Below, one piece after another: positions 6,436 to 26,463 of a stretch of DNA of 64,000 bases. Every line of letters starts with the position of its first letter. Position 1 is the stretch's first letter. The position numbers and the translations under genes are program-made. The stretch covers positions 1,376,001-1,440,000 of the forward strand of contig CBDFJF010000002.1 in the NCBI GenBank assembly GCA_965248265.1. Direction: 5' to 3'. The notes beneath the pieces were generated by a model. It made no database searches. It was given only the letters and a program-made list of their open reading frames with translations, and was not told where the DNA came from. The stretch is from Candidatus Latescibacterota bacterium. Its GTDB lineage: Bacteria; Latescibacterota; UBA2968; UBA8231.

Positions 6436-7224
6436 ATGGCCGAATATACGTTTCCAGATCTGCAGGGCCTGGTTGCGGACTACGACCGGGATGGCTATGC
6501 CGTCATCCGTCGCGTGCTGGATGCCGATCTGGTTCAGGAGTTGGATCAGCACGTAGACTGGCTGATGGCGAAGCACCCCGAGCTGTCGCCGGAAGAGCTT
6601 CCCACCAGGCTCATCGCACAGGATCCATTCTGGGTTCGTTTCTTGTCCGATCAGCGATTGCTGGATGTGGCCGAAGCCCTGGTGGGTCCCAACATCGCCC
6701 TGTTCGCCGCCGATTACATCTGCAAGCCGCCGCTCAAGGGCCGTGCTGTTGAGTGGCATCAGGACGGTCACTACTGGCCGCTCGATCCGATGGATGTAGT
6801 CACCGTCTGGTTTGCCGTGACTCAATCTGTAAAGGCCAACGGATGTGTCCGGTTTATCCCCGGCAGCCATCGCCTGGGTATCCAGCAACACTCAACGGAG
6901 CGGGATGAGACCAAGATGCTTCGCAAGGTCGACGAGGCCGCCCTCGACGAGAGCCTGGCTGTCGATATTGAGCTCGAAGCTGGCGACATTTCGGTCCATC
7001 ATCCACACCTTCTGCATGGATCCGAACCCAACACCAGCGAGCGATGGCGGCGCGGCGGATCGATTCAGTACATGCCGGCCACCACCCGGGTGACGGTGCA
7101 GAAGTGGCCTAGCCTGTTCCTGTTCCGGGGCGAGGCAGTCGAAGGTGTCAACGACTACCGTCCACGTCCCATGTATGTCGAGGGTGAGCACATGCCGTTT
7201 CGCAACTGTGAGGCGTGGGCGTAA
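6436..7224 (+). CDS. PhyH-family Fe(II)/2OG dioxygenase
   Basis: WHQD, NGC..FIPGSH, LLHGS.PN...RR motifs. Confidence 0.9.
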   Translation: MAEYTFPDLQGLVADYDRDGYAVIRRVLDADLVQELDQHVDWLMAKHPELSPEELPTRLIAQDPFWVRFLSDQRLLDVAEALVGPNIALFAADYICKPPLKGRAVEWHQDGHYWPLDPMDVVTVWFAVTQSVKANGCVRFIPGSHRLGIQQHSTERDETKMLRKVDEAALDESLAVDIELEAGDISVHHPHLLHGSEPNTSERWRRGGSIQYMPATTRVTVQKWPSLFLFRGEAVEGVNDYRPRPMYVEGEHMPFRNCEAWA

Positions 7225-7233
7225 AGACTGGCT

Positions 7234-7422
7234 TCAGGAGGCTTCGTTTACCTTCCAACCGGGCAGCTTGGGGCCCCATTCGAGCGGGTTGTGCCAATCC
7301 TTGAATACAGTTTCATCCAGGTGCTTGTCAGGGTCCCTGAAGTCCAGGACCTTGCCTGACGGGCATTGGGTTAGATCGATCTGCGCCAGCACTATGTTCG
7401 TAGCGTTGTTGTCTTCAGCCAC
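7234..7422 (-). pseudogene. Short ORF, probably the C-terminal remnant of a gene
   Basis: 62 aa with protein-like DWHNPLEWGPKLPGW in a lower-GC intergenic stretch; no recognisable family. Confidence 0.3.
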
Positions 7423-7516
7423 CTTCAGTCCCTTTCAGAAGAGCTCCCTACACACGGAGAACGATGAGGTCCGGACGAAATTGCTAGGCATATCGTTAGT
7501 TTATATCGCTTTGGGA

Positions 7517-7547
7517 GTTGGTGTCGAGTGGAACCCTCGCCAACAAC
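7517..7547. promoter_or_regulatory. Inverted repeat, candidate enhancer (UAS) for the sigma54 promoter
   Basis: GTTGGTGTCGAG-N7-CTCGCCAACAAC (10/12 arm match), about 40-70 bp upstream of the -24 box. Confidence 0.45.
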
Positions 7548-7588
7548 TTCACGAGGTTAGCAACACCTCACGCTCCTGCCGCCCTTCT

Positions 7589-7604
7589 TGGCACGTCCCT
7601 TGCA
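7589..7604 (+). promoter_or_regulatory. Sigma54 (RpoN) -24/-12 promoter
   Basis: TGGCAC-GTCCC-TTGCA, an exact match to TGGCAC-N5-TTGCW, intergenic and about 95 bp upstream of ATG 7700. Confidence 0.8.
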
Positions 7605-7699
7605 ATGGTGTATGGTATTGCCCTCGGACGACTATGCTCTGAAAACTATCAGCCACACAATACCGTTCTTGTTCACCGTACATCCACCCGGGAGATACC

Positions 7700-10600
7700 A
7701 TGCAGCTTTCCGTTCGACGATACCTCGTTTTTCTCAGCATCCTGGTCCTGGCCCCGCTGGCACAGGCCAGTGCCCAACCCTTCTTCACCAACATCACCGA
7801 TGCCGTCAGCCTGACCGCCTCCGACCTCGATAATACTCCTCCGACCGGTCTTGTCTTCAACGACTACAACAACGACGGCTTCCAGGATGTTTTTGTTTCG
7901 AATTTTCCCGGAAACCGTCTCCACCTGTTGCAGAACACGGGAGACGGTCGCCTGATCGACATGACCTCCGCAATCCCGAGTGAGCTGCACAGGGTCCCGG
8001 GGTTCGGCATTATAGCCGACTATGATAACGACGGGGATGAAGACCTTTATCTGGCGGTTTCGTTCCCTCCTCGCAATCTCCTCCTGCGCAACGACCACGG
8101 TCTATTTACCGAAGTCACCTGGGACGCCGAAGCGACTCCGTTGTTTTCCGCTGGAGCGATCTGGCTCGATTATGACCGGGATGGGCATCTCGACCTCTAC
8201 GTCGACAACCATTTCGGCAACCCGCTGCGAGGCAAACGACTGTTTCGCAGCAACGGTGCGGGCCTCTTTGTCGATCGCACGGCAGTGTCAGGTTTGGACA
8301 GCATCTTTCATCCCCAGTCGGGCGGCTCTGTTGGCGGCATGGCCGGCGGCGACTTCAACAACGACGGCTGGCCCGACCTCTATATCGGCGTTGGCGCCCA
8401 CCCCCTTTTCGGCGATGCCACCAACATTCCGAATCGACTGTTTCTCAGCGACGGCCAGGGCGGCTTCGTGGATGCTACCACCGGTGCGATTGCCGACGAG
8501 GGCGACGCGGTCAGCGCTGTCGTCGGAGACATCGACAACGACGGGGACCTCGACATCTTCCAGCCCGCGATCGGATGGACCCGTGATGGAACCGGGTTCG
8601 AGTTTGCTTTCGATGAGCAAGGATCCCGTAACCTGATGCTGTTGAATCTGGAGGACGGGCAGTTCCTTGACGTCACCGAAGGCGTCGGCCTCGGTGTAAG
8701 TGTCCTGGGTGCCAACTCGACGGGTGCCGTTTTCGCTGATGTCGACAACGATGGCGATCTGGATCTCATTATCGGCACTTCGGTAACGCAATCGGGACCG
8801 AGGAACTTCCTTCTGCTGAATGACGGCAGCGGTGTCTTCACGGACGCGACGAACCAATCCGGAATAGACGACCGCGGAATAGTTCTGGCCTTTGGCGACT
8901 TCGACGAGGACGGTTTCGTCGATCTCTTCTACTCCGGCACTCGTTGTTGCGCCTTCGTCTACCGCAACAACGGCAATAACAATCACTGGCTGCGAGTCGA
9001 GCTGAACGGCATAGAGAGCAACCGCAATGGCATCGGCGCCCGTTTGATCGCTGAGGCCGGCGACCTGGAGCAGATGCGGGAGATGCCGGGCGGCAAGGGT
9101 CGACAGCAGAACGAGAGGGTTGCGCACTTCGGCCTGGCCCAGCACACCCAGGTGGACCGGCTGGAGATCCGCTGGCCTTCGGGACAGGTGGATGTACTGG
9201 CGAACATTCCCGCCGACCAGAAGATCCGCGTGGTTGAAGGGCAGGGTGACTATCACATTGTCCACCCGACGATCTGGGAGCGGCGGCCACCGACCGCCCT
9301 GGTCGCGGAATCGACGGGCGAGCTGACCGCCCTGGTTCGTCCAGCTCTGTTCGACGCTCAATCCCGGATCACTCGAGTCACCGCTGATCTGAGCGGGGTG
9401 GGAGGGCCGATGGCGTTCGATCTCAGCCCTGAAGAAGAGGGTACCTACCGACTGAACGCGCCTTATCAGATCGACGGGCCCAATCGCGTCGAGACGGTTT
9501 GGGTCACCATCGAGCAGGCGACGTCTCTCGGGCCGTACTGGACGAAGCTTGCGGCACAGATCGAGGTCTGGCCCACCGGGGATCTGAGCGTATTCGGGGA
9601 TGCGAGCGCGGGATGGGCACTGACTCAGGAGCGGATCGAAGTGCGCCTGACGCACGACAGCGCCCGGGATGAACGCCCATCATGGTCACCGGATGGCAGC
9701 TCGATCACGTTCGCTTCATTTCGGGATGGCGATGCCGAGATCTACGTGATGGACGCGGATGGGACGAACCAGGTAAACCTCACCAACCATCCTGACGCTG
9801 ACCTGGATGCGGTGTGGTCACCCGATGGCACCCGCATCGCTTTTCACTCTGATCGGGATGGCGATTAGGATGTGCACGTGATGGACGCAGACGGCGGCAA
9901 TCCAATGGCTCTGACGACCAGCTTAGGCGACGACACTTGGCCGACGTGGTCGCCCGACGGGACCCGCATCGCCTTCTCCTCTGAGCGCGACGGGGATCGC
10001 GAGCTGTATGTGATGAACGCCGACGGCACGAACGACGTGCGACTGACGGAGCATCCGGGCCCTGACTCTAAGCCGAGATGGTCGCCGGACGGCTCAAAGA
10101 TCGCCTTCGAATCTGAGCGCGACGGAGAGTGGGAGATCTATGTGATGAATACCGACGGCTCGAATCAAGTGAACCTGACCAACAGTCCTTCTTCTTCGGA
10201 TCATCGGGCGACCTGGTCTCCCGACGGCTCGAGGATCGCCTTCGAATCCACCCGTGACGGAAACTTCGAGATCTATGTGATGAACGCCGACGGCAGCGGC
10301 GTCGTTCGGCTCACCGACAGCCCCGGGCAAGACTTGTCTGCCAGCTGGTCGCCCGACGGGACGAAGATTCTGTTCACCTCAGGTCGGGCAGGCAACTTGG
10401 ACATCTATTCGATGGAGGTCGGAGCAGGGGCGCTGACCGTTCTGGATCCGCAACCGATGGAAGTGGTCTTCGAAGGCGATACGGCGCTGGAGGTGATCGC
10501 CGACGGAGACTGGAGCGTGGCCTATGCGGCATCTGAACCCCACGCCCAGACAGGGTACGACGTCCTGCGCCTGGCCCTTCACCCCGGCGATGTTACAGCG

Positions 10601-11155
10601 GGGGCCGGTAACGCTGTTCGGGTTGCTCTCAATAGCGGCCGGATCGTCAATCTGCTCGGCGGTGACCTCGAAGGCGTGGAGATCGACCTGACCCGGAAGG
10701 AGTGGCAGTCTGTGGAGATTCCCCTGTCGCTCTTTGCCCTGGACGGACCCGTTGACGTCATCAAGCTGTCCGGGAATCTCAGCGGCCGCTTCTATGTGGA
10801 CGACATTCGGCTGGTGCGCGCCACCCCTGGGCAGATCACGGCGGTCGTCGAGGAAGAGGTCTCTATTTTGCCCGAGGAGTTTACCCTCGATCAGAACTAC
10901 CCCAACCCCTTCAACAGCGGCACCGTAATCCGCTTTGCACTGCCCAAGGCTGATGACGTGGAGCTCGTCGTCTACAACCTCGCCGGGCAGAGGGTCATGA
11001 ATCTGGCGCAGGGGCCGCGCAACGCCGGGTCCTACACGCTGCGCTGGGACGGGCGCGATGATGCGGGGCGCGAGCTGGCCAGCGGGATGTACCTGTATCG
11101 ACTGCAGGCGGGGGAACAGCTGGTGGAGACGCGGAAAATGGTGTTGTTACGATAA
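7700..11155 (+). CDS. Secreted FG-GAP/ASPIC-UnbV (CRTAC1-like) protein with TolB-like PD40 repeats and a FlgD-Ig/T9SS-type tail; one in-frame TAG at 9866-9868
   Basis: Signal peptide; DYNNDG/DIDNDGD repeats; NNHWLRVEL..SNRNGIGAR, HFGL, IRWPSG; six WSPDG repeats; QNYPNPFN...WDGRD...ASG.YLY; ORFs 7700..9868 and 9872..11155 share one frame. Confidence 0.85.
9645..10410 (+). repeat. Six tandem ~44-codon PD40 (WSPDG) coding repeats
   Basis: Recurring TGGTC(A/G/T)CC(C/G)GA(C/T)GG about every 132 bp. Confidence 0.85.
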
Positions 11156-15688: not shown

Positions 15689-17022
15689 ATGTCTGGAACA
15701 CCATCGGGACTTTTTCATCGTGATCCGACCTACACCTATCCCGTCATCGTTCGGGGGGACGGAATCTATCTCTATGATGAAGCGGGCAAGCGCTACATCG
15801 ACGGTGGTGCCGGAGCGACGAATGTAACCCTGGGACATGGTCGCGAGCGCATCGCCGCGGCGATGGCACAACAGGCGGGTGAGCTCGCATACGTCTTCTC
15901 GGCGCGTTTGGCGAATCAGCCGGCGATCGAGTTCGCCGACCGCATCGCGGCGATCGCCCCCGGAGACCTGAACCATGTCTACTTCGTGTCCGGGGGATCG
16001 GAAGCCAACGAAAGCGCGCTCAAGATGGTGCGGTTATACCATCAGGAGCGGGGCAACGGTGACAAGCGGCTGGTGATCTCACGCTGGCGCAGCTATCACG
16101 GCGCGACACTCGGTGCCCTGTCGCTGACAGGTATCCCATCGCTGAGGAAAAACTTCGATTCGTGGCTGCTGCCGTTTCCGCACATAGATCCCTGCTATCC
16201 CTACAGATGCCCCTTGGGCTGTGAGGGCTCCTGCAATCTTGCCTGTGCCGATGCTCTGGAGCAGGCGATTCTCGAATCCGGGCCGGAAAACGTGGCGGCC
16301 TTCATCGCGGATCCGATAGGCCCGGCGGCTGTTTCCGTGCCCCCGCCCGACTACTACTCGCGGATTCGCGAGATATGCGACCAGTACGACGTCCTGTTCA
16401 TCGTCGACGAAGTCATCACCGGCTTCGGCAGAACGGGGAAGTTTTTCGCCATCGAACACTGGGATACCTTCCCGACATGATCACCTTCGGAAAAGGAGCC
16501 AGCAGCGGTTATTGTCCTCTGGGCGGTGTGATTCTGACCGATCGGGTACGGGAGGCCGTGACCGAATCGGGCAACAGCTTTCCCCATATTTTTACCTACG
16601 TCAACAATCCCCTTGCCGCCCGCGTCGGACTCGAGGTGCTGGATATCATCGAAGAAGAAAACATGATCGCTCGCGTTGCCGAGGCAGGCGATCAACTGTT
16701 TGAACGGGCAGCGGAGCTACGCCAACATCCGATTGTGGGGGATGTGCGCGGTAAGGGCCTGCTGCTGGGAGTGGAATTGGTGAAGGATAGGGCCACCAAG
16801 GAGCCTTTCCCCCCATCCTTGGAAGTGAACAAACGGTTGGACAAGATCTTCATACGAAAAGGTTTGTCGTGCGCCACGGGGGGTGCTTCAACGGAATGGA
16901 CGAGTAGTGATGACTTCCTCCTGTCACCGCCGTTCGTCATCACCGGACCTCAAATCAACGAGCTAGTCCAAATCATCGACGAGGGACTGGCCGAGCTTCA
17001 GGAGGAACTATCCGGTCTGTGA
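15689..17022 (+). CDS. Class III PLP aminotransferase with a 1-bp frameshift near 16468
   Basis: SGGSEANE, SYHGATLG, DEVITGFGRTG, then PDMITFGKG (PLP Lys) and GDVRGKGLL.GVELV in the second frame. Confidence 0.85.
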
Positions 17023-17051
17023 ATCGGCGACACCTGTCGATGGCCGGCACA
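16928..17051 (+). repeat. Direct repeat copy A (aminotransferase 3' end plus downstream DNA), attL-like
   Basis: 124 bp; matches 22460-22584 with 6 substitutions and 1 indel counted by eye. Confidence 0.9.
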
Positions 17052-17090
17052 TCATGCGAGTACGTCGTGCGAGTAGGTCATGCGAGTACA
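17052..17090 (+). repeat. Three tandem 13-bp repeats TCRTGCGAGTASR
   Basis: TCATGCGAGTACG TCGTGCGAGTAGG TCATGCGAGTACA, starting on the first base after repeat copy A. Confidence 0.85.
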
Positions 17091-17171
17091 CGGACGACGA
17101 TCAACGCCCTCGAAAAGCCTCAAAAGCGCTTGACTGACTCCCGATAAAGCTGTTTATAACCACTAACCATC
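17091..17171 (+). promoter_or_regulatory. Promoter-like repeat copy 1 (TTGACT...TATAAC)
   Basis: 17101-17171 matches 20973-21043 at 70/71; TTGACT 17130-17135, TATAAC 17155-17160 (19-nt spacer). Confidence 0.65.
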
Positions 17172-17358
17172 TCATCTGGTGATTTTAACTGTTGAAAAGG
17201 GGGATTTGTCGATAGTATACCAGCTCGGCAGAGATCCTGGGAGTCCGAAGGCCGCCAAGCTTCGATTGGCCTGATTTAGTGCCTGGTCGCCGCTGATAGG
17301 TTGTGCCTTCAATGCTTATTCCCGAGCCGGCCAGGCCGTTTTCGCAAGGTACGACATC

Positions 17359-20300
17359 GTGGAATTGAGTAAGGATGTGGGAGTGTTTGACGGCAAGAGA
17401 GCGGCTGTTATCTCAATTGTAAGCCGAGCACTCTGTGCCGTCCTGCTACTCCTGATCGCCTGCGTCTTCGCTGCGCCCGCGGACGCGCAGTTCCATAAGC
17501 GCGCCACCGCCTACCGCGCCACCGGCCCGCTCGAGATCGATGGCCGGCTCGACGAAGCTTCGTGGGCCTCTGTCGCTCGACTGGGGCCCTTCGCCGATTT
17601 GGAGTCGAGCGCAAAGGCCCGCAACGAGACGTTCTCCCGCCTCCTGTGGGACGACGACTACCTCTACATCGCATTCGAGTGTGAGGATCCGGATGTGCGG
17701 GCGACGAAGTCGCGCCGGGACCAGCGGGTTAATGAGGACGACATGGTCGAGGTTCAACTCGATCCGGATGGGGATGGACGGGACTACCTGATTTTCTCCG
17801 TGAATCCGTTGAACACGCTTGGCGATCGCCACCAGGAACGCGCCTACACGGAAGGGGAAGATGACATCTACCATCTCGACTGGGATGCGGAAGGCGTGCT
17901 CACAGGCGTGCACATCGAGGGGACGCTCGAGGAACGCGCGGATCGAGATCGACGCTGGTCCGTGGAGATCGGGCTGCCCTGGAAGGCCCTGGAGACCTAT
18001 GCCGGCGGCCAACAGGTGCCGCCGACCGAGGACTCTGTGTGGCGCGTCGGACTCTATCGGCTCGACCTGTGGGGCGAAGGCGATGACGAAGGCCATGAGA
18101 AAACGGCGTGGTCTCCCACACGCCAGCGGTTCTGGGAAGATGCCGAGCGCTTCGGAGCCGTGCTGTTCTCGGAAGAAACCGCCATGGACCGTCCGGCGCT
18201 GAGCCTCGCGAAGTACGCGACCCGGAATCCGGCCAGATCTGACGAGCGCCGTTCGTTGCCAGCGCCGGGTGAGGAGCTCGTCGTCGAGGTCACGCTCCGG
18301 AACCAGGGTAACAGGACTGCGACCGACATCACCGCCACGCTACGGGGCACCGATCCCCAGGTGACGGTGCTGGATTCCGTCGTGGAGGTGGGCCGCATCG
18401 ACGCTCTCGATACCGCCACAGCCGGGTCCTTCCGCCTACAAGTCGGGATGGGCTACACGCCGAACACGCCCCTGCCTGTGAGATTGCACCTGCGCGACCG
18501 GTCCGATCGACGCTGGGTCGAGGGACTGGACCTCTACCTCGACTTCATCGAGGACCGGCCGTACAGCCGAAGGGACGTCGAAGGCAAGAGGTTCGTCGCG
18601 CTGACGACTTGGCGGTATCACCCCGGCGATGACATGGCGTGGGCCGATCCAGCCTTCGACGACAGCTCCTGGGAGCTGGTGAATTCCATCCTGACTCGCG
18701 ATGACCTGCCGGAGGCAGGCTGGCAGGGCATCGGCTGGTTCCGGCGGCGCGCGATGGTCGATTCCACCCTGTGGAACAGATCGCTGGCGCTGATTGTGGA
18801 AGAATCCTCCGGGGCCGCCGAAATTTACCTGGACGGCAGGCTGCTCTACACCCTCGGCACCGTGGGTACGTCGGCCGCGGAGGAGGAGGCCCGTCGGGAC
18901 CCGAATCCGAAAGTGATCCCCCTCGACGATTCTCCAGCCCACGTGATCGCCGTGCGGTTTTCGAACTTTTCCGCCGAGCAGTTCTTCGCACTGAGGGGGC
19001 CGGCGGGCTTCTCTCTCGCGCTGGCTGGCCTGAACGAGAGCATCGCTCGGCGGGCGGAAAACGCCCGGGAATCCTCGGTTTATCAGACGGTGGCCACAGT
19101 TCTGCCCCTGGTCCTGGCCATTCTGCACCTGTTGCTGTTCCTCTTCTATCCGCGTCATCGCCAGAACCTGTACTACGCGGTCTCTACCGCGCTGTTCGCC
19201 TCTATCATGTACCTCTCATTCCAGTTCCAGTTCAGCACCGATCCAACCGAGCTGCCGGAATTCTTTCGGGGTTTCAAGATCCTCTTCGTCCTCGCTTTCC
19301 TGGCCACGGCACAGTTCGCGTATTCTCTGTTCTACACCCGAGTGCCCCACCAGTTCTGGGTATTCTTCGCCGCCGGCGTGGTGTTGATCGTCTGGGACTG
19401 GATCGACCCGGCAGAGGACCCGACCTACCAAGGCGTGTTCGTATCGATCCTGCTCGTCGAGATCGCCCGGGTGATCGTCACCGCTGTCATCCGCAGAAGG
19501 GCCGGGGCGTGGATCATCGGCCTGGGATTCGCGGGCCTGATCCTGGGGTTTGCGCACTTCTTCGCCGTAATCCTCGATGTCCTGCGGCCTGTCGATGCGC
19601 CGCTCCCCATCTATGGAGGACTTTGCCTCCTCGCCTCGATGTCGGTTTTCCTGGCCCGCACCTTCGCCCGCACGAATCGAGACCTCGAGGAGCAGATTGT
19701 CCAGGTCCAGAAGCTGTCCGCCCAGACGCTCGAGCAGCGCGACCAGGCGCGCACCGAGCTGGTGCGGGAACGCCGACAGCGCATCCAGGTGCAGCCACAC
19801 GAGATCGAGCACTGGACTCTCGAGGACTTCGTCGGTTCGAGTGCGTCCTGGCAGTCGGTCCGCTCTCGAATCCGCGATCTTCAGCCGGACGACAGCCGCA
19901 CGCTGATCCATGGCGAAGCCGGTACAGGCAAGGAGCTGGTCGCTCGGGCGATCCACGCAGGCAGCCGGCGAGCAGATCAAGCCTTCGTCGCGGTGCGATG
20001 CGCCGGACTGCCGAGACAGGTAGAGTCGCTGACTCAGCGGACCGAGGCGCTGTCCATTCTGTTCGGCCATACGCAAGGCGCCTTCCCCGGTGCTACAGAA
20101 GACCGTCAAGGGCTTCTTCAGCAGGCGCAGGGAGGTACTTTATTCTTCGACGAGGTCGGTCTACTACCGGTGGCTCTGCAGGCGCACCTGATGCGAGTGT
20201 TCGCACAGGGAGAGGTGCGACTGACCGGCGCCTCCGACAGCGATCCTCTCGACGTGCGGGTGATGGCCGCCACCAGCGAGGATCTGGAGATGCAGGTCGA

Positions 20301-20589
20301 AGTAGATGGCTTCAACCGTAAACTGTACGAGTACCTGGCGACGAACGTGGTGGCCGTACCGCCGTTGCGGGATCGGCGGGAGGACATCGCCCCGCTGGCC
20401 CGGCAGATCGCCGATAGTGCGTCGAGAGAGCTGGGGCTGGATTCAGCACCTATTAGCGACGAAGTGCTGGCATTGCTCGATGAGTACGGCTTCCCAGGGA
20501 ACGTACGACAGCTCCGGCGTACCTTGGAGCAGGCGCTGAGGATGAGCAGCGGTCCGATCAAGCCAGAGGATATCAGCCTGCAGGCATAG
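17359..20589 (+). CDS. Membrane-anchored atypical sigma54 enhancer-binding protein: CBM9-like, Ig-like, jelly-roll, 7TM, coiled coil, AAA+; no HTH
   Basis: IDGRLDEASW, LLWDDDYLYIAF, WSVEIGLPW (CBM9-like); WRYHPGDD..WA.P.FDDSSW, GIGWFR; about 7 hydrophobic helices; GEAGTGKELVARAIH, GAFPGA, GGTLFFDEV, PPLRDRREDI, FPGNVRQL. The exact start codon is uncertain. Confidence 0.85.
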   Translation: MELSKDVGVFDGKRAAVISIVSRALCAVLLLLIACVFAAPADAQFHKRATAYRATGPLEIDGRLDEASWASVARLGPFADLESSAKARNETFSRLLWDDDYLYIAFECEDPDVRATKSRRDQRVNEDDMVEVQLDPDGDGRDYLIFSVNPLNTLGDRHQERAYTEGEDDIYHLDWDAEGVLTGVHIEGTLEERADRDRRWSVEIGLPWKALETYAGGQQVPPTEDSVWRVGLYRLDLWGEGDDEGHEKTAWSPTRQRFWEDAERFGAVLFSEETAMDRPALSLAKYATRNPARSDERRSLPAPGEELVVEVTLRNQGNRTATDITATLRGTDPQVTVLDSVVEVGRIDALDTATAGSFRLQVGMGYTPNTPLPVRLHLRDRSDRRWVEGLDLYLDFIEDRPYSRRDVEGKRFVALTTWRYHPGDDMAWADPAFDDSSWELVNSILTRDDLPEAGWQGIGWFRRRAMVDSTLWNRSLALIVEESSGAAEIYLDGRLLYTLGTVGTSAAEEEARRDPNPKVIPLDDSPAHVIAVRFSNFSAEQFFALRGPAGFSLALAGLNESIARRAENARESSVYQTVATVLPLVLAILHLLLFLFYPRHRQNLYYAVSTALFASIMYLSFQFQFSTDPTELPEFFRGFKILFVLAFLATAQFAYSLFYTRVPHQFWVFFAAGVVLIVWDWIDPAEDPTYQGVFVSILLVEIARVIVTAVIRRRAGAWIIGLGFAGLILGFAHFFAVILDVLRPVDAPLPIYGGLCLLASMSVFLARTFARTNRDLEEQIVQVQKLSAQTLEQRDQARTELVRERRQRIQVQPHEIEHWTLEDFVGSSASWQSVRSRIRDLQPDDSRTLIHGEAGTGKELVARAIHAGSRRADQAFVAVRCAGLPRQVESLTQRTEALSILFGHTQGAFPGATEDRQGLLQQAQGGTLFFDEVGLLPVALQAHLMRVFAQGEVRLTGASDSDPLDVRVMAATSEDLEMQVEVDGFNRKLYEYLATNVVAVPPLRDRREDIAPLARQIADSASRELGLDSAPISDEVLALLDEYGFPGNVRQLRRTLEQALRMSSGPIKPEDISLQA

Positions 20590-20942
20590 AAGTGGCGGTC
20601 AGGGCTGAGAACGGCGGATAAAATTCGCTGATCGAAAGAGGATGTCGTCCCGCCGAATCGGAATGGAGGTACGGCCTGTACCATATGCGCCTTCACGAGT
20701 AACAGGGATCATTGCCAACCCTGCATTAAGTGATTTGTGAGTTTGCGGTGCGTGATCCAACCGATAACACCGCGCTCGCGCTGCGCGGATTCGCAAAACC
20801 GAGAACCGCTGTCGGCAACCTGGTTTCTGTCTTTGTTCTGGAAATCTGACGCCCAGTTGTTGAATCGAAACCAATCGCTAACAGCTGCCGCTGCGCCCGC
20901 AGAGGCTGATCCGGGCAGCCTGTCCGCTGGTCCATCGTTCAC

Positions 20943-21043
20943 CGGACGACGATCAACGCACAAGAACGGCCCTCAACGCCCTCGAAAAGCCTCAAAAGCG
21001 CTTGACTGACTCCCGATAACGCTGTTTATAACCACTAACCATC
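20943..21043 (+). promoter_or_regulatory. Promoter-like repeat copy 2
   Basis: Same sequence as 17091-17171 plus 20 extra bases associated with a second TCAACGC. Confidence 0.65.
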
Positions 21044-21058
21044 GTCTATCCTACCTGA

Positions 21059-21155
21059 GGACACCGCCATTCTTTTGACGAGCTGGGGCCAGGTGAAGGA
21101 AACCCCCGGCGGGAGCGACTGAGCCTCCGCGAACGTGGTGGACAGCTAAACGTCC
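21059..21155 (+). ncRNA. Candidate structured RNA (multi-stem junction), possibly the mobile-element-associated radC RNA motif
   Basis: Stems CACCGC/GTGGTG, GCTGGGG/CCCCGGC, GGAGC/GC(C)TCC, GGAC/GTCC just downstream of promoter copy 2; the family name is from recollection and unverified. Confidence 0.45.
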
Positions 21156-21640
21156 CTGCGGACTGATCATATGTGTTACCCCTGTCAACTGATACACCGC
21201 ACAACCCTCAGCAACCTGCCGCGCTCATGCGCCGCTACCACCACACTCATAATCCCAACTCTGAACAAAGCACCCTTCTCAACGAAATCGTGAGTCATCT
21301 TTCGATCACCGTCTTTCTTTTTTGAGATGGTCCAGCACAGTCGTGGGAGATGATAGTCTACAGCAGGAGCATCGTCGAAGCGATTCGGGATGACTGTCAG
21401 TATCAGTTGACGCTGTTAGATCCGGTTCCAGCGTCGTTTGTCGAACTGCGCTCTTGGCCTGACGCTGCAGAGAGGTGTTGCGCTCAAGGGCCAGTTCCCT
21501 GGCCGCGTCCAGCGAAAAAAGGAAATGGATCGTCAGCCACAGCGGGCGCCGGGCCGAGATGCTACTTCGTGTCACACGCGCTTTTTTGCCAGAAACCTGC
21601 CGTCGCAGGACGATGGCGCCTGGCGGTGCCTATCCGTACA

Positions 21641-22327
21641 ATGCCGGTCATGTTTGCGATCTTCGGGAGACTGCTACATCAAGCCAGACAAAAGCGGTGG
21701 GCAAACCTGCTGGTGGTAACTCTGCGCATCGGCCTCGCCTTTGCCTTTGTGCCGGCGGGGCTGAAGAAGGTGATATATCAGCCCTTTACCGATCCGCAGA
21801 ACACGGGTCTCTTTCATGAATTTCTGCACGCCTTCTACGCCACGGGCGCCTTCTACTCGTTCGTTGGAGTCATGCAACTCCTGGCGGCCCTGCTGCTCCT
21901 GTCTCAGCGTTTTGCCCTGGTGGGGGCGCTCATCCTTCTGCCCATTGTTTCGACCATTCTCGTGTTTTGCTGGAGTACGCAGGTCTACCCCACGGCGACG
22001 GTTGTGTCGTTCATGTTTGCCGCCACATCGGGCCTTGTCCTGTGGGACTTGCAGAAATGGCGCACTGTTTTCTTCCAGGATCAGCGGGGTGGTGAAATTC
22101 GGATGGAGCCCTCCTCTGCCTCCGTTGACCTGAATCTGTGGACTGGGTGCGGAGTCCTGGTCACGTCGCTGTACCTGCTGGTCTGTGCCCTGACGGGTGG
22201 CGTCTACCGCCCTATGGGTGCCGAGTTCGATCGCCCTGCTTTTTACGTCTTCCCCCTGATGCTCCTGATCTTCGCCGCGACCTTCATCGTCGATCAAATC
22301 CGATACCGGCGGTCGATCCGGGGCTGA
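21641..22327 (+). CDS. DoxX-family membrane protein
   Basis: LRIGLAFAFVPAGLKK, FY.FVGVMQL.A..LLL..RFA..GA; about 6 TM helices; start 21641 or 21650. Confidence 0.75.
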   Translation: MPVMFAIFGRLLHQARQKRWANLLVVTLRIGLAFAFVPAGLKKVIYQPFTDPQNTGLFHEFLHAFYATGAFYSFVGVMQLLAALLLLSQRFALVGALILLPIVSTILVFCWSTQVYPTATVVSFMFAATSGLVLWDLQKWRTVFFQDQRGGEIRMEPSSASVDLNLWTGCGVLVTSLYLLVCALTGGVYRPMGAEFDRPAFYVFPLMLLIFAATFIVDQIRYRRSIRG

Positions 22328-22459
22328 GTTCTCAAGTGACAGGACTTCCCCGCTCGAGCGATGGGGACGATCATCTGCCAGCTGTTTTTCCGGCTTGACG
22401 CAGATACGTTTTGGCGATATTGCCGCGCTGGGAGAAATCCGGCGTTAGCAATGCAACAA

Positions 22460-22584
22460 CGCCGTTCATCATCACCGGACCTCAAATCGATGAGCTGGAC
22501 CAGATCATCGACGAGGGACTGGCCGAGCTTCAGGAGGAACTATCCGGTCTGTGAATCGGCGACACCCTGTCGATGGCCGGCACA
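22460..22584 (+). repeat. Direct repeat copy B (orphan aminotransferase 3' end), attR-like
   Basis: Encodes PFIITGPQIDELDQIIDEGLAELQEELSGL* with no upstream gene body. Confidence 0.9.
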
Positions 22585-22593
22585 CTGGGTGGG

Positions 22594-23139
22594 TCAAGCC
22601 GATTGCGGTTCGCGGGCGAACGTAGACTGGTAAGAGGCAAGCGCCGCTCCACCGAGCCGTTCACCCATGGTCCGGAGCTCTTCGCGCCGGTACTCCCACG
22701 TGCCAGACCGCTCGACCTGCTCCAAATGGTCACACAGGTGTAGTCGCATCAGGTCCTCGAATTCCTGGTTGGACAGGTCCAGGGTTTCGCCCGACAGCCG
22801 GTCTACGATCGCGTAGCGGTCCTGGTGTTTGTCGACCAGGGCAAAAAACGAGGCGCGATCCATGGCACAGTTGGCATAGGCGATCAGCTCTGCCCGGGGC
22901 CCGATCAGCGTGCGCAGTTCCTCGCGCCGATCCAGCGGGAGGGTGAAAGCCTGAAACCCTTCGGTACCGTAGATCGAATGGAACACGGCAGCGCGGCACA
23001 TCTCCTCATCTGCTTCCCACGATTTCATGTAATTGTACACCCCGACCGCGTGGCCCAGGTAGGTCGTGCCCGAATGGGGGAGTTTGGCCACACCCAATTC
23101 GTGGATGTAGTTCGTCATCGTTTTTACCGGCAGAGTCAT
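22594..23139 (-). CDS. DUF6817-like (HD-fold-like) protein
   Basis: PHSG..YLGH..GV, A.FHSIYGTEGF, LIG.RAE; GGAGG RBS before ATG 23139. Confidence 0.75.
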   Translation of the reverse strand: MTLPVKTMTNYIHELGVAKLPHSGTTYLGHAVGVYNYMKSWEADEEMCRAAVFHSIYGTEGFQAFTLPLDRREELRTLIGPRAELIAYANCAMDRASFFALVDKHQDRYAIVDRLSGETLDLSNQEFEDLMRLHLCDHLEQVERSGTWEYRREELRTMGERLGGAALASYQSTFAREPQSA

Positions 23140-23396
23140 CGTTGCCTCCTCGTATTCAGCAGGTCGGACAGGCCAAACGCGGTGTCCTGCCAACCCGCGA
23201 GCGGATTTGCATCACAGAGATTCGGGCTTTTCCTGGATCATTTCCAGCTCTCGACAGGGTGGAGTCTTCAGCCCATACTAACGGCGGCTCCCGCAACTAG
23301 CGCATCGACTTACGCACTTTGATCAATCTCTTTTTCTCGGACGCCGCTGGAAGATCAATGGAACAGCGTCAGCCCGCCCCACACAGGTAAGCAGCG

Positions 23397-24887
23397 ATGA
23401 ATGTGCTCCTGATTCTGGCCGACCAGTTCCGCGCCGATTGTCTGCATCATGCCGGCAACGAAGTGATTCAGACTCCCAATCTGGACCGGCTTGCCTCTGA
23501 GGGAGTCTCGTTCACCCACTGCTTCAACCAGACAGCCCCGTGCGGTCCCAGCCGCATGTGCATCTATACCAGCCGGTACCTGTGCTCGACGCGGGTCGTC
23601 CACAACGGGACCCCGCTGCTGGACGCTGAGGACAACGTCGCGTTCATGCTCAAGGAAGCCGGCTACGACCCGGGGTTGATCGGCTACAACAGCTACACCA
23701 TCGATCCGGCCCGCCTGCCCGAGGGAGATATCCGCCGCAACAGCCTGGACTACCACAACAGCCTGCCCGGGTTCGAATGGATATTGAATCACGAAAAGGA
23801 CAGCGACGAGTACTTCCAATGGCTGGGCGACGGGAAAGGGTACCCTCCTCAGCTGCTGAACCACGACGCCATTCACGAACCGGCAGTGCCCGAGGAGGGG
23901 CCGGGCGAGCATCTGCCGCAGCATTTCCCGGCTCGATACCGCAAAGAGCACAGCGAATGCCGCTACGTAACCGAGCGGGCCGTCGATTATGTGCGCGAGC
24001 GCAAACCGTCCTCGCCCGTGGACAAAGGCTGGGTGTTGAGTCTCAACTACAACAAACCGCACCCGCCCAATATCTGCTGCGAGCCGTATTGCGACATGTA
24101 CGACCCGGCCCACATGCCGCCGGCGGCGCGATCAGAAGAAGAGCTGACTCCGGCCCATCCGTACCTGCGGAAGCTGGCGCATAAGGCTCTGACGGACGAG
24201 TTGCATCTACAAGAGTACCGCGCCTGCTACTACGGCATGATCACCGAAGTGGACGACAACCTGGGACTGCTGTTCGATGCAATCGATGAGAGCGGGCAGT
24301 GGGACGACACCTTGATCATCTTCTCCTCCGATCACGGCGAGCATCTGGGTGATCACTACATAATGTCAAAGGGCCAGTTTCACGACGGCGGCATGCGCAT
24401 TCCCTACATCATCAAGGATCCGTCTCCCGAAGCCGATGCCACCCGCGGTCAGATCATGCCCCACTTCATCGAGTCCATCGATTCCGCCCCAACGATGATG
24501 GAGGCTCTGGGTCAGCCGATCCCCGATCGCTTTCAAGGGCGCAGTCTCCTCGGGCTCTTGCGCGACGACGCGGAGTACGAACCGCGCGAAGAGATACACT
24601 ACGAGTTCGACTACCGCGGCCGCCGGTGGGCGGGAGAGAATCCGGATCCGGATGTCCATGTTCTCTGGGTGGTGCGGGACCGGGAGTTCAAATACATCTA
24701 CTTCGCCGACGAGGAGATGCCGCCTATTCTCTTCGATTTGACAACCGACCCAGACGAGCTGACGAATGTGGCCGGACGGCTGGAGTACGCCGCCGCCGAG
24801 TTGCGCTACAGCCACAAGCTGCTGCGCTGGCGCATGAAGAACGAAGATCAACGCATGGAGCGCTGGGCCCAGCCACTGCGCGACTAG
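23397..24887 (+). CDS. Formylglycine sulfatase-family hydrolase, phosphonate monoester hydrolase-like
   Basis: ADQFRAD, TPNLDRLA, CGPSR, KPHPP, SDHGE.LGDH, LFDL..DP.E. Confidence 0.85.
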   Translation: MNVLLILADQFRADCLHHAGNEVIQTPNLDRLASEGVSFTHCFNQTAPCGPSRMCIYTSRYLCSTRVVHNGTPLLDAEDNVAFMLKEAGYDPGLIGYNSYTIDPARLPEGDIRRNSLDYHNSLPGFEWILNHEKDSDEYFQWLGDGKGYPPQLLNHDAIHEPAVPEEGPGEHLPQHFPARYRKEHSECRYVTERAVDYVRERKPSSPVDKGWVLSLNYNKPHPPNICCEPYCDMYDPAHMPPAARSEEELTPAHPYLRKLAHKALTDELHLQEYRACYYGMITEVDDNLGLLFDAIDESGQWDDTLIIFSSDHGEHLGDHYIMSKGQFHDGGMRIPYIIKDPSPEADATRGQIMPHFIESIDSAPTMMEALGQPIPDRFQGRSLLGLLRDDAEYEPREEIHYEFDYRGRRWAGENPDPDVHVLWVVRDREFKYIYFADEEMPPILFDLTTDPDELTNVAGRLEYAAAELRYSHKLLRWRMKNEDQRMERWAQPLRD

Positions 24888-24945
24888 AGTCCGTGTGCGC
24901 ACCGGCTCGTCCGATGCGATTTAAATACAAATAGAGGGACAAGCG

Positions 24946-26463
24946 ATGGCGATGTTAGAGATTGGATCCAGCAAGCAGCTGTTCTTCGACGACTACCTGA
25001 TTGAGAGCCTGACGCACGCCACCCGGGGGTTGAACCAGGCAATCAAAGTGGATGAACCCATCCTGCAGCAGGAGCGGCCATGGGAGGGAAACTGCATGCG
25101 GCCGCAGAAGGTGATCTTCGATCCCCACGACCAGCTGTTCAAGATGTGGTACTCCACAGTGACCACCTCGGTGATGGTCAAGGACGGCAAACCTGTGCGG
25201 GGCGGCTTTGACGGTTACCTGTGGGATTCATCCGGGTCGGCCACGTGTCTGGCAACATCCAAGGATGGCGTGAACTGGGAGCGGCCGTCACTGGGATTGA
25301 CCGAGTTCGACGGATCGACGGACAACAACATTCTTCCGGAGCGGGAAAACCTGCCCAATGTACCGTCGTTTCAGGATCTCCACGAGAAGGATCCCGCCAA
25401 ACTCTACAAGGCGATGACACTGACCGGCGGTACGCAAACGCGGGGTTTGCAGTACGACCTGTTCTACTCTCCCGACGGCCTGGCCTGGACCCCGTACGAA
25501 GGCAATCCCGTCATTGATACAGGGCAGGAGCTTGGACGCTGGGCGGGCAGATTCTTCCCCTGGGACCCGATTCGGGAGACTTACTTCGTGACGATGGAGG
25601 CCAGTCACCACTGGCGGGGTCCCTACGGCAAGCGTCTTGTCGGCAGGGCGGAAAGCCCGGACATGATTCACTGGAGCGAGCCCGAGATTCTTCTGGTTCC
25701 GGATGATAAGGACGCCGCGGACACGGAGTTCTACAGCTTTCCCATATATCCCTACGAGGGGATCTACGTCGGGTTGTTGTGGATTTTCCGCACCACGAAT
25801 GTTACCCATCATCCCGAGGTCGCGTTCAGCCGCGACGGTTTTCACTTCCAGCGCAATTTCAGGGAGCCGTACATCCCGCGGGGGGGCGCCCTGGGGGAGT
25901 TCGACTCGAGCAGCGTCTATACCATGGACACGATCGTCCACGGGGACCGCATCATGACCTACTACATCGGCACCAACAGGCGCTCACCTGAAGTCGGTTT
26001 CGCCCTGGGCGACAAGGCCAGGGAAGGCGTCGGTCTGGCCATCTCGCGCCTCGACGGTTTCGTTTCCCTGGACAGCGGCAAGGGCTGGATCGTCGCCGAT
26101 CGATCGGAAGAGGAACTGGAAAAGACCTCGGGAGAGCGGGTTCTGTTCGACGAACCTGAATCGTTCGGCCAGATGGTGACGCGACCCTTCGGGTTCTCAG
26201 GGTCGAGTCTTCACGTGAATGCGAGTATGGCGCCGCTCGCTGCCGGACCCGGCCCCGGTGAGGTGCGGGTTGAGATCGTGCGGTCGAACCACAAGAAGTT
26301 GCCGGGATTCAACTTCAACGATGCCGACCCGATAACGGAAGGCAGCACCGACCACGTCCTATCGTGGAACGGCAACACCGATCTGAGTGCGCTTGCCGGC
26401 CAGCCGATCAAGCTGCGCTTCTACTTCAAGAATGCCAAGCTCTACTCCTTCCAGTTCAAGTAG
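24946..26463 (+). CDS. Hypothetical glycosidase-like beta-propeller protein (third member of the family)
   Basis: KQLFFDD.LI, PWEG, ATSKDGVNWERP.LG, RLDGFVSLD, KLRFYFKNAKLYSFQF. Confidence 0.75.
   Translation: MAMLEIGSSKQLFFDDYLIESLTHATRGLNQAIKVDEPILQQERPWEGNCMRPQKVIFDPHDQLFKMWYSTVTTSVMVKDGKPVRGGFDGYLWDSSGSATCLATSKDGVNWERPSLGLTEFDGSTDNNILPERENLPNVPSFQDLHEKDPAKLYKAMTLTGGTQTRGLQYDLFYSPDGLAWTPYEGNPVIDTGQELGRWAGRFFPWDPIRETYFVTMEASHHWRGPYGKRLVGRAESPDMIHWSEPEILLVPDDKDAADTEFYSFPIYPYEGIYVGLLWIFRTTNVTHHPEVAFSRDGFHFQRNFREPYIPRGGALGEFDSSSVYTMDTIVHGDRIMTYYIGTNRRSPEVGFALGDKAREGVGLAISRLDGFVSLDSGKGWIVADRSEEELEKTSGERVLFDEPESFGQMVTRPFGFSGSSLHVNASMAPLAAGPGPGEVRVEIVRSNHKKLPGFNFNDADPITEGSTDHVLSWNGNTDLSALAGQPIKLRFYFKNAKLYSFQFK

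Follow-up and report, generated by a model that had tools for sequence, protein, structure and literature searches.

A membrane receptor from Candidatus Latescibacterota carrying a putative undescribed subfamily of the sigma-54 activator AAA+ domain

What does the AAA+ domain of a sigma-54 activator do once it is anchored to the membrane, has no DNA-binding domain behind it and lacks the residues with which such domains hydrolyse ATP and contact sigma-54? The question is raised by a gene on the forward strand (17359–20589) of a 64,000-nucleotide stretch of the Candidatus Latescibacterota bacterium assembly GCA_965248265.1 (contig CBDFJF010000002.1, positions 1,376,001 to 1,440,000), hereafter the window, whose numbering is used throughout unless a different genome or contig is named. 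Its open reading frame (ORF) was confirmed as 1,076 codons plus stop with GTG as start codon (17377 and 17383 are possible alternative in-frame GTG starts), and the product, identical to entry P0002 of our protein collection, is a one-component membrane receptor with an AAA+ module of the enhancer-binding protein (EBP) type on the inside. Judged by sequence comparison, we take this module to belong to a conserved, undescribed subfamily that descends, in specialised form, from the AAA+ domain of sigma-54 activators. Its features are as follows:

19831–20367, forward strand: sigma-54-type AAA+ core, residues 825–1003 (Pfam Sigma54_activat PF00158 at residues 825–995, 154 bits against a cut-off of 20.2).
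19912–19935, forward strand: Walker A GEAGTGKE, intact, residues 852–859.
19996–19998, forward strand: Arg880, in the column at the end of strand 2 where canonical sequences have Asn (84% of the clade described below has Arg, 97% of 258 canonical sequences have Asn).
20011–20055, forward strand: pre-loop stretch with an 8-residue insertion, the extra residues lying between CAGLP and LFGH and including invariant Arg894-Thr895.
20077–20094, forward strand: L1 loop, GAFPGA replacing GAFTGA, residues 907–912.
20140–20160, forward strand: Walker B LFFDEVG, Asp-Glu intact, residues 928–934.
20266–20283, forward strand: sensor I region, AATSED where AATNRD is canonical, with Asn replaced by Ser.
20311–20337, forward strand: FNRKLYEYL replacing FRxDLYYRL, residues 985–993, both arginine-finger positions lost (Arg to Asn and Arg to Tyr).
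20368–20571, forward strand: AAA+ lid, residues 1004–1071 (Pfam AAA_lid_14), with sensor II PGNVRQL at 20494–20514 (residues 1046–1052) and its Arg intact.

These differences were placed by HMMER alignment to the solved chains of NifA, ZraR and CapR (E 3e-47 to NifA and 3e-45 to ZraR for the AAA+ core, with CapR also aligned), together with an alignment of 289 sequences. They bear out a first-pass annotation made from the letters of the window, which had read GAFPGA, FNRKLYEYL, an insertion before the loop and an end right after the lid. The column of Arg880 is presumably that of the 'glutamate-switch' Asn of PspF. Pfam also matched Sigma54_activ_2, and NCBIfam models for NorR, NifA, NtrC and other activators matched the AAA+ part alone, all far under their family cut-offs; the Sigma54_activat score of 154 bits compares with 212–252 bits for the other 28 copies in the same genome. 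The stop codon falls 5 residues past the lid match. EBPs usually, though not always, end in a Fis-type helix-turn-helix (HTH). HTH_8, the corresponding family, had no Pfam match in the 1,076-residue protein, and a profile built from the tails of 249 canonical EBPs found no HTH relic in the six frames of 20300–21400 (best 0.5 bits, compared with 60.6 bits for the control protein P0139). In an AlphaFold2 model of residues 760–1076 (mean predicted local distance difference test score, pLDDT, 82.7), the predicted cytoplasmic part comprised a long helix followed by a normal AAA+ fold, in which L1 formed a hairpin and the inserted residues lay ahead of it, in a loop and a lengthened helix.

Relatives were sought in two word-indexed searches (5.8 billion proteins) and one exhaustive HMMER search (1.84 billion representatives), which returned a small set of close AAA+ relatives at 44–70% identity, followed at around 40% by ordinary activators in their tens of thousands. 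Of 374 stored proteins scanned with the module, 344 matched; 31 with two or three AAA+ stretches were set aside, and the 289 single spanning matches were aligned and divided into the 31 nearest to the query (at least 212 bits; hereafter the clade) and 258 others. Proteins with two or three tandem sigma-54-type AAA+ stretches (P0123, P0125, P0239, P0244 and others) also ranked high in the searches.

The two groups differed at the positions at which the query is unusual. The pre-loop stretch was 23–25 residues long in all 31 clade members and 16 residues long in all 258 others. Position 4 of the loop was Thr in a single clade member (P0273, whose loop is degenerate) compared with 250 of 258 others; elsewhere in the clade it was Pro (15), Ala (11), Glu (2), Ser (1) or Asp (1), and seven of the 258 canonical sequences had Ser there. 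The Arg of the second arginine finger was found in none of the clade and in 256 of the others, that of the first finger in four and 257, respectively, and the sensor I Asn in none and 223. All but one of the clade ended within 25 residues of the lid, as did only two of the 258, and no clade member had a Pfam match to HTH_8. Other traits were retained: the Walker A Lys was present in 31/31, Walker B Asp-Glu in 29/31, the sensor II Arg in 30/31 and the loop Phe in 27/31, and Arg894-Thr895 within the insertion was invariant across the clade. The query has the 8–9-residue insertion with Arg-Thr, lacks the second finger, stops just past the lid and falls with the clade in phylogenetic analysis.

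It counts against this grouping that the 212-bit boundary was chosen after the tail lengths had been seen, and that no gap in scores falls there (213 vs 209 bits); support for the group therefore comes from the tree. This was an unrooted tree, built by a 'quick' method from the 31 and a subset of 60 sequences from the other group (the nearest 15 and a random 45, with 198 left out). The 31 formed one side of a branch with a Shimodaira–Hasegawa-like approximate likelihood ratio (SH-aLRT) value of 99, which fell to 95 once the columns of the insertion, loop, sensor I and fingers had been removed. As some 30 relatives from environmental samples share the same losses, the gene is not a decaying one: orthologs with GAFTGA and an HTH had been named at the outset as the sign of decay, and the relatives instead keep the variant loop (Thr in 1/31) and the truncation (HTH_8 in 0/31).

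The only taxon names attached to the relatives were those of Gemmatimonadota metagenome-assembled genomes, where one accession series carries two different members, and at least that lineage therefore has more than one copy of the module. Walker B is degenerate in P0272, and both Walker B and sensor II are degenerate in P0251; some rows of the clade alignment (P0238, P0241) are fragments at contig ends. Beyond the clade, the ESM Atlas returned only generic sigma-54 activator clusters. Searches for related loci yielded 80 loci in genome contigs (best 46% identity) and 80 in metagenome contigs (best 45%, with patterns that were too generic), which we took to be ordinary EBPs from identity alone. 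Searches with residues 788–1076 (E ≤ 1e-65, no positive control) recovered no clade member in 206 genomes of the phylum of an Eisenbacteria genome or in 285 genomes of the phylum of an 'FCB group' genome. Within the host's own phylum (168 genomes, eight candidates scored per genome), scores of the clade profile did not separate the clade from ordinary EBPs, and the motifs of the top loci were read instead; no other clade member occurred among the 19 top-scoring loci outside the gene itself, every one of them ordinary: 18 had a 16-residue pre-loop stretch (loop Thr in 17, Ser in one) and one was a propeller-EBP with an HTH.

The sensors in front of the module vary widely. Reg_prop/Y_Y_Y propeller sensors precede it in 22 of the 31, and the full-length examples that were read have a single membrane span. 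Two members (the receptor described here and P0240) carry 7TMR-DISM helices, and P0245 aligns to residues 585–1066 at 40% identity, so it has the multi-helix part in common. Single members have a CHASE2 domain (P0130), a receiver domain (P0255) or, in a short soluble protein, a coiled coil only (P0262), and in the metagenomic protein P0251 (514 residues) the module is inserted between FliG_N and FliG_C. Found behind such varied sensors, the module behaves as a portable output domain. Receptor-like anchoring was also seen on canonical EBPs. P0139 (G000:C1, open frame from ~1275923, forward strand) fuses a 7TMR-DISM receptor to a canonical EBP with GTFTGA, FRSDLYFRI and a retained HTH, with P0140, P0279 and L013 as relatives; proteins of this type would, from their sequences, be membrane-tethered sigma-54 activators still able to bind DNA. 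A further type (L019 in G141, with similar matches in G146, G128 and G125; ~1,090–1,110 residues) combines Reg_prop/Y_Y_Y propellers with an EBP core that has the loop GATSAD, intact fingers and an HTH; the Y_Y_Y domain and the AAA+ core have no evident membrane-spanning segment separating them.

Ahead of its module, the receptor is built from the following parts:

17359–17487, forward strand: signal peptide region, residues 1–43 (hydrophobic core 20–38; AAPADA then QF, the cleavage site being inferred from sequence).
17536–18168, forward strand: CBM9-like domain, residues 60–270 (Pfam CBM9_1, 45.3 bits against a cut-off of 23.4).
18199–18534, forward strand: beta-sandwich domain with no Pfam family, residues 281–392 (AlphaFold2 strands, pLDDT about 85).
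18595–19029, forward strand: jelly-roll domain adjoining the membrane on the outside, residues 413–557 (pLDDT above 90), in the place of the 7TMR-DISM extracellular domain.
19090–19653, forward strand: seven hydrophobic helices of 7TMR-DISM type, residues 578–765 (hydrophobicity scan).
19639–19782, forward strand: long cytoplasmic helix or coiled-coil linker, residues 761–808 (AlphaFold2 helix, positions 2–49 of the module).

The order proposed in the first-pass annotation (a signal peptide, three extracytoplasmic domains, the first of them CBM9-like, about seven transmembrane helices, a coiled coil and an AAA+ domain with intact Walker A and B) was thus recovered in full by Pfam, the hydrophobicity scan and AlphaFold2. 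The AlphaFold2 model of the ectodomain (residues 45–575, mean pLDDT 69.6, from an alignment of 24 rows) contained three beta-rich domains, at ~45–240 (low confidence), 281–392 and 413–557. Foldseek matched the first to the CBM9 of Thermotoga maritima (1i82; TM-score 0.51 on the target, 21% identity, model pLDDT mostly 35–70 there) and the jelly-roll domain to the N-terminal domains of glycoside hydrolase family 2 (GH2) beta-glucuronidases (root-mean-square deviation 3.8–7 over 137–182 columns); the ectodomain model also matched the anti-sigma factor domain-containing proteins 6qe7 and 6qdi. No Pfam match to 7TMR-DISMED1/2, the extracellular domains of 7TMR-DISM receptors, was listed at E up to 1 in the 1,076-residue protein; the jelly-roll domain is conserved in 7TMR-DISM relatives. 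Three extracytoplasmic domains of apparent carbohydrate-binding type are a fair description of the ectodomain, and its ligand is probably a carbohydrate or another envelope ligand, as family and fold resemblance suggest.

The protein is a three-part mosaic. Residues 44–400 match the N-terminal part of a secreted protein, P0008, at 44% identity, residues 413 to ~805–810 (~390 residues) are 43–47% identical to 7TMR-DISM phosphatases and kinases that bear PF07695, and residues 793–1076 are 56–70% identical to clade members. In the receptor itself, Pfam 7TMR-DISM_7TM (PF07695) scored 28.0 bits over residues 584–744, just below its cut-off of 29. BLASTP ranges place the junction of 7TMR-DISM-like and clade-like sequence at about residues 793–805, inside the signalling helix. 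Contigs assembled per run from four runs of one sample spanned the whole gene with zero differences (e.g. a 3,793-base contig equivalent to 17118–20910), so the domain junctions are not an artefact of assembling the long contig. Among the sequencing runs listed, only these four contained the gene, and none was an RNA dataset.

The host has a sigma-54 system, as evident from one rpoN and 28 canonical EBPs. Its genome (7.32 Mb, two contigs) gave a single Sigma54_DBD match (211 bits, in a 490-residue ORF) and 29 EBP-type AAA+ proteins, the receptor included. Each of the remaining 28 has the loop Thr, 27 have FRxDLxxRL (the pattern took a different stretch in the remaining one) and 27 have tails of 78–155 residues past sensor II. 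The canonical EBP nearest to the module is only about 40% identical to it.

A role as a conventional transcription activator is very unlikely for the module, because the residues for trans-activated hydrolysis and for sigma-54 contact are consistently absent. In PspF and NtrC1, arginine fingers are required for hydrolysis by the ring, and the Phe-Thr of the loop contacts region I of sigma-54. Purifying selection has nonetheless preserved the shape of the loop, the Phe within it and the newly acquired insertion with Arg-Thr, and the loop face therefore presumably still has a task. Our preferred reading, which we put forward tentatively, is of a ligand-gated module that does not bind DNA and holds a cytoplasmic partner through the loop surface rather than remodelling it. 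The ectodomains would bind a carbohydrate or other envelope ligand, and the seven 7TMR-DISM-type helices and long signalling helix would pass the signal inward. Ligand binding would alter the helix linker and hence nucleotide-dependent self-association of the module, which would then hold its partner by the preserved loop surface instead of by ATP-driven remodelling. The leading candidate for that partner would be sigma-54 or its holoenzyme, sequestered at the membrane, because region I of sigma-54 is the ancestral ligand of the loop face; the next would be canonical activator rings, poisoned by the module. A bolder and distinctly unlikely version would make the clade the first family of sigma-54-directed anti-sigma receptors, in which a crippled ring captures region I or the holoenzyme in the ATP-bound state, without hydrolysis, until an extracellular (glycan) signal releases it; if true, a single receptor would adjust the output of the 28 activators together.

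Several points weigh against partner-holding by the loop face, and against sigma-54 as the partner held. Loss of the loop Thr, reported as needed for sigma-54 contact, argues against a sigma-54 ligand as much as against activation. Retention of the catalytic Glu of Walker B in 29/31 is unexpected for a pure binding module and hints that ATP hydrolysis may persist; Arg880, the invariant Arg894 or a subunit of a partner might stand in for the lost arginine. The fusion to FliG domains in P0251 suggests roles unrelated to transcription. Complex prediction with three copies of the AAA+ module and the first 60 residues of the host's own sigma-54 (score 0.00, mark 0.32) gave no evidence either way.

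The alternative that survives best is that the module has left the sigma-54 system altogether and serves as a nucleotide-dependent oligomerising scaffold or switch for another target, such as a motility, secretion or envelope component. We regard this as possible, if doubtful: no class of residues linked with sigma-54 remodelling is left, and P0251, lodged between FliG_N and FliG_C, also lacks Walker B and sensor II, as P0272 lacks Walker B. Set against it, the loop keeps its full length and the form G-A-F-x-G-A, with Phe in 27/31, whereas EBP derivatives that work independently of sigma-54, TyrR for example, no longer have the loop motif, and no result points to an alternative partner.

We consider it unlikely that the module is instead, along the lines proposed in the first-pass annotation, a regulated poison or partner subunit in mixed rings with a canonical EBP of the same cell, whose arginine fingers would complete its ATP sites. 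Walker A and the catalytic Glu retained beside lost trans-acting arginines would fit a subunit that receives fingers but gives none, and one of the 28 canonical EBPs in the genome, P0139, even shares the 7TMR-DISM type of anchor. Published precedents include EBPs that form heteromers (HrpR/HrpS; PMC3105312) and one anti-activator (FleN; PMC8528422). Such a pairing sits poorly with the distance to the nearest canonical EBP, with the absence of any EBP gene beside the receptor gene, and with the receptor being the only clade member found in its phylum, where a co-evolved partner is thus not evident.

More doubtful still is a working membrane-based sigma-54 activator that does without DNA binding, as FlgR and CtcC do, and copes with the altered loop. 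The AAA+ core is plainly homologous to EBPs, with Walker A, Walker B and sensor II intact, the genome encodes rpoN, and HTH-less activators exist (PMC12282069, on Chlamydia). However, the clade lacks, almost without exception, both fingers, the loop Thr and the sensor I Asn, and exchange of the loop Thr for Pro is reported (PMC4641369) to have inactivated NifA of Bradyrhizobium japonicum. Finally, a decaying or chimeric non-functional gene, whether assembly artefact or recent pseudogene, might be suspected from the three-part mosaic, the dispersed repeats on both flanks, the lack of the gene at the syntenic place in a related genome and the split aminotransferase gene next door, but is largely refuted by the intact 1,076-codon frame spanned without differences by per-run contigs, by ~30 relatives at 44–70% identity having every unusual trait in common, by the independent like fusions P0240 and P0245 and by the lack of an HTH relic downstream.

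The gene lies between two copies of a repeat:

17088–17171, forward strand: copy of a dispersed 84-nt repeat on the upstream side of the gene; per-run contigs break here.
20960–21043, forward strand: downstream copy, 93% identical to the upstream copy.

About 20 copies of this intergenic repeat, with a core of about 65 nt, occur in the genome, most of them on its contig C2. The repeat contains TTGACT followed 17–19 nt on by TATAAC and often lies shortly upstream of ORFs; it had no Rfam match, and a simple promoter scan did not call it. In a related genome (G099; locus L188, G099:C1:3723000-3742999, positions 6882–10802), 3.9 kb is 92.9% identical at the nucleotide level to 21110–25022 of the window; homology ends at 21110, just beyond the second repeat, and the receptor gene is absent from the syntenic place. 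G099 is placed in another genus, yet it also shares a 99% identical membrane protein, which is unusually close for different genera. G+C content at third codon positions (GC3) was 0.73–0.81 in the three parts of the gene and 0.68–0.79 in eight neighbouring genes. Its composition gives no sign of recent transfer, yet the gene has the look of one that arrived, or was put together, within this lineage at a site marked by repeats.

A direct duplication of 128 nt (93.8% identity) of the 3' end of an aminotransferase gene (16925–17051 and 22457–22584) brackets the receptor gene and the membrane-protein gene that follows it, and its second copy is also present in G099. The class-III aminotransferase gene itself is split into overlapping frames (15689–16480 and 16375–17022) by an apparent frameshift, at which the per-run contigs agree with the assembly, without an indel. 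Rfam had no match in the whole window, and scans for sigma-70 promoters and terminators around the receptor gene found nothing above chance. The first-pass annotation had also tied the receptor to a promoter at 7589. A perfect TGGCAC-N5-TTGCA, the only perfect copy in the window, does lie there (7589–7604, forward strand), but we rejected the link: it lies 10 kb away in front of other, unrelated FG-GAP/PD40 genes, and no relation to the receptor gene was found. Matches with up to two mismatches numbered 25, compared with a mean of 28.6 after shuffling, and were no commoner than chance. The FG-GAP/ASPIC gene behind the promoter (7700–9868) has its ATG 96 nt after it; next comes a gene (9872–11155) for a PD40 propeller protein that carries a sorting domain for type IX secretion.

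GAFTGA and ATP-driven remodelling are taken to define all sigma-54 activators as a single mechanistic class. A conserved, portable module tethered to the membrane, with ATP binding and the scaffold of the loop retained but the residues for catalysis and contact lost, would represent a new type of signalling output, whether as a negative regulator of the sigma-54 system or as an AAA+ switch put to other use. The clade would also offer a natural experiment in which residues of activator rings serve binding and which serve remodelling. The database label 'sigma 54-interacting transcriptional regulator' is probably wrong for its proteins. A 2025 survey of EBPs retains only sequences that bear GAFTGA (PMC12316311), and such a filter would therefore have removed the clade.

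Compared with known systems, the module is like canonical EBPs (NtrC1, PspF, ZraR, NifA) in its homologous AAA+ core and lid, Walker A and B, sensor II, loop length and Phe, and differs in lacking the HTH, in the exchange of the loop Thr for Pro, in the replacement of both fingers and the sensor I Asn, in Arg880 for Asn, in the 8-residue insertion and in its seven-helix anchor. In NtrC1-type regulation, as in the receptor here, a helical linker leads in from the sensor. HTH-less sigma-54 activators are known in FlgR of Helicobacter and Campylobacter, CtcC of Chlamydia and FleT of Rhodobacter, which like the module end after the AAA+ domain without a DNA-binding domain; unlike it, they are soluble, keep GAFTGA and the arginine fingers, and do activate sigma-54. 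TyrR, NtrC of Rhodobacter capsulatus and VpsR are sigma-54-independent EBP derivatives that work at sigma-70 promoters, and resemble the module in that an EBP-type AAA+ domain no longer serves sigma-54, but they are soluble and keep a C-terminal HTH.

Towards the outside, the carbohydrate-sensing anti-sigma factors 6qe7 and 6qdi, which we take to be of the RsgI type, offer a functional analogy only: an outer carbohydrate-type domain, a membrane span and a sigma-directed inner domain, with cytoplasmic sides unrelated in sequence to that of the receptor. RsgI-type systems are single-pass and directed at a factor of the sigma-70 family. The hybrid two-component systems of Bacteroides carry the same kind of periplasmic propeller/Y_Y_Y sensor as 22 of the 31 clade members, all on one membrane polypeptide. 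Their output is a kinase, receiver and AraC HTH, whereas that of the clade is the AAA+ module, and the 1,076-residue receptor itself has no Reg_prop domain. DVU2960 of Desulfovibrio vulgaris has the same Thr to Pro loop variant (GAFPGA); according to PMC4641369, no regulon has been assigned to it, it showed no binding to the DNA tested, and the authors doubt that it activates. By that description it differs as a single-component regulator encoded inside a sigma-54 operon, beside a canonical EBP (PMC4641369).

The first-pass annotation had put the receptor forward as the best candidate in the window for an undescribed signalling system. Full-text literature searches, which covered few subscription journals, found no paper on an EBP-type module that is anchored in the membrane and lacks both the HTH and the loop Thr, and none naming both 7TMR-DISM and sigma-54. 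In known 7TMR-DISM receptors, the jelly-roll domain and seven helices (43–47% identity) are joined to PP2C phosphatases, histidine kinases or cyclases; the receptor described here has an EBP-type AAA+ output in their place, with a CBM9-like domain and a beta-sandwich added at its N-terminus.

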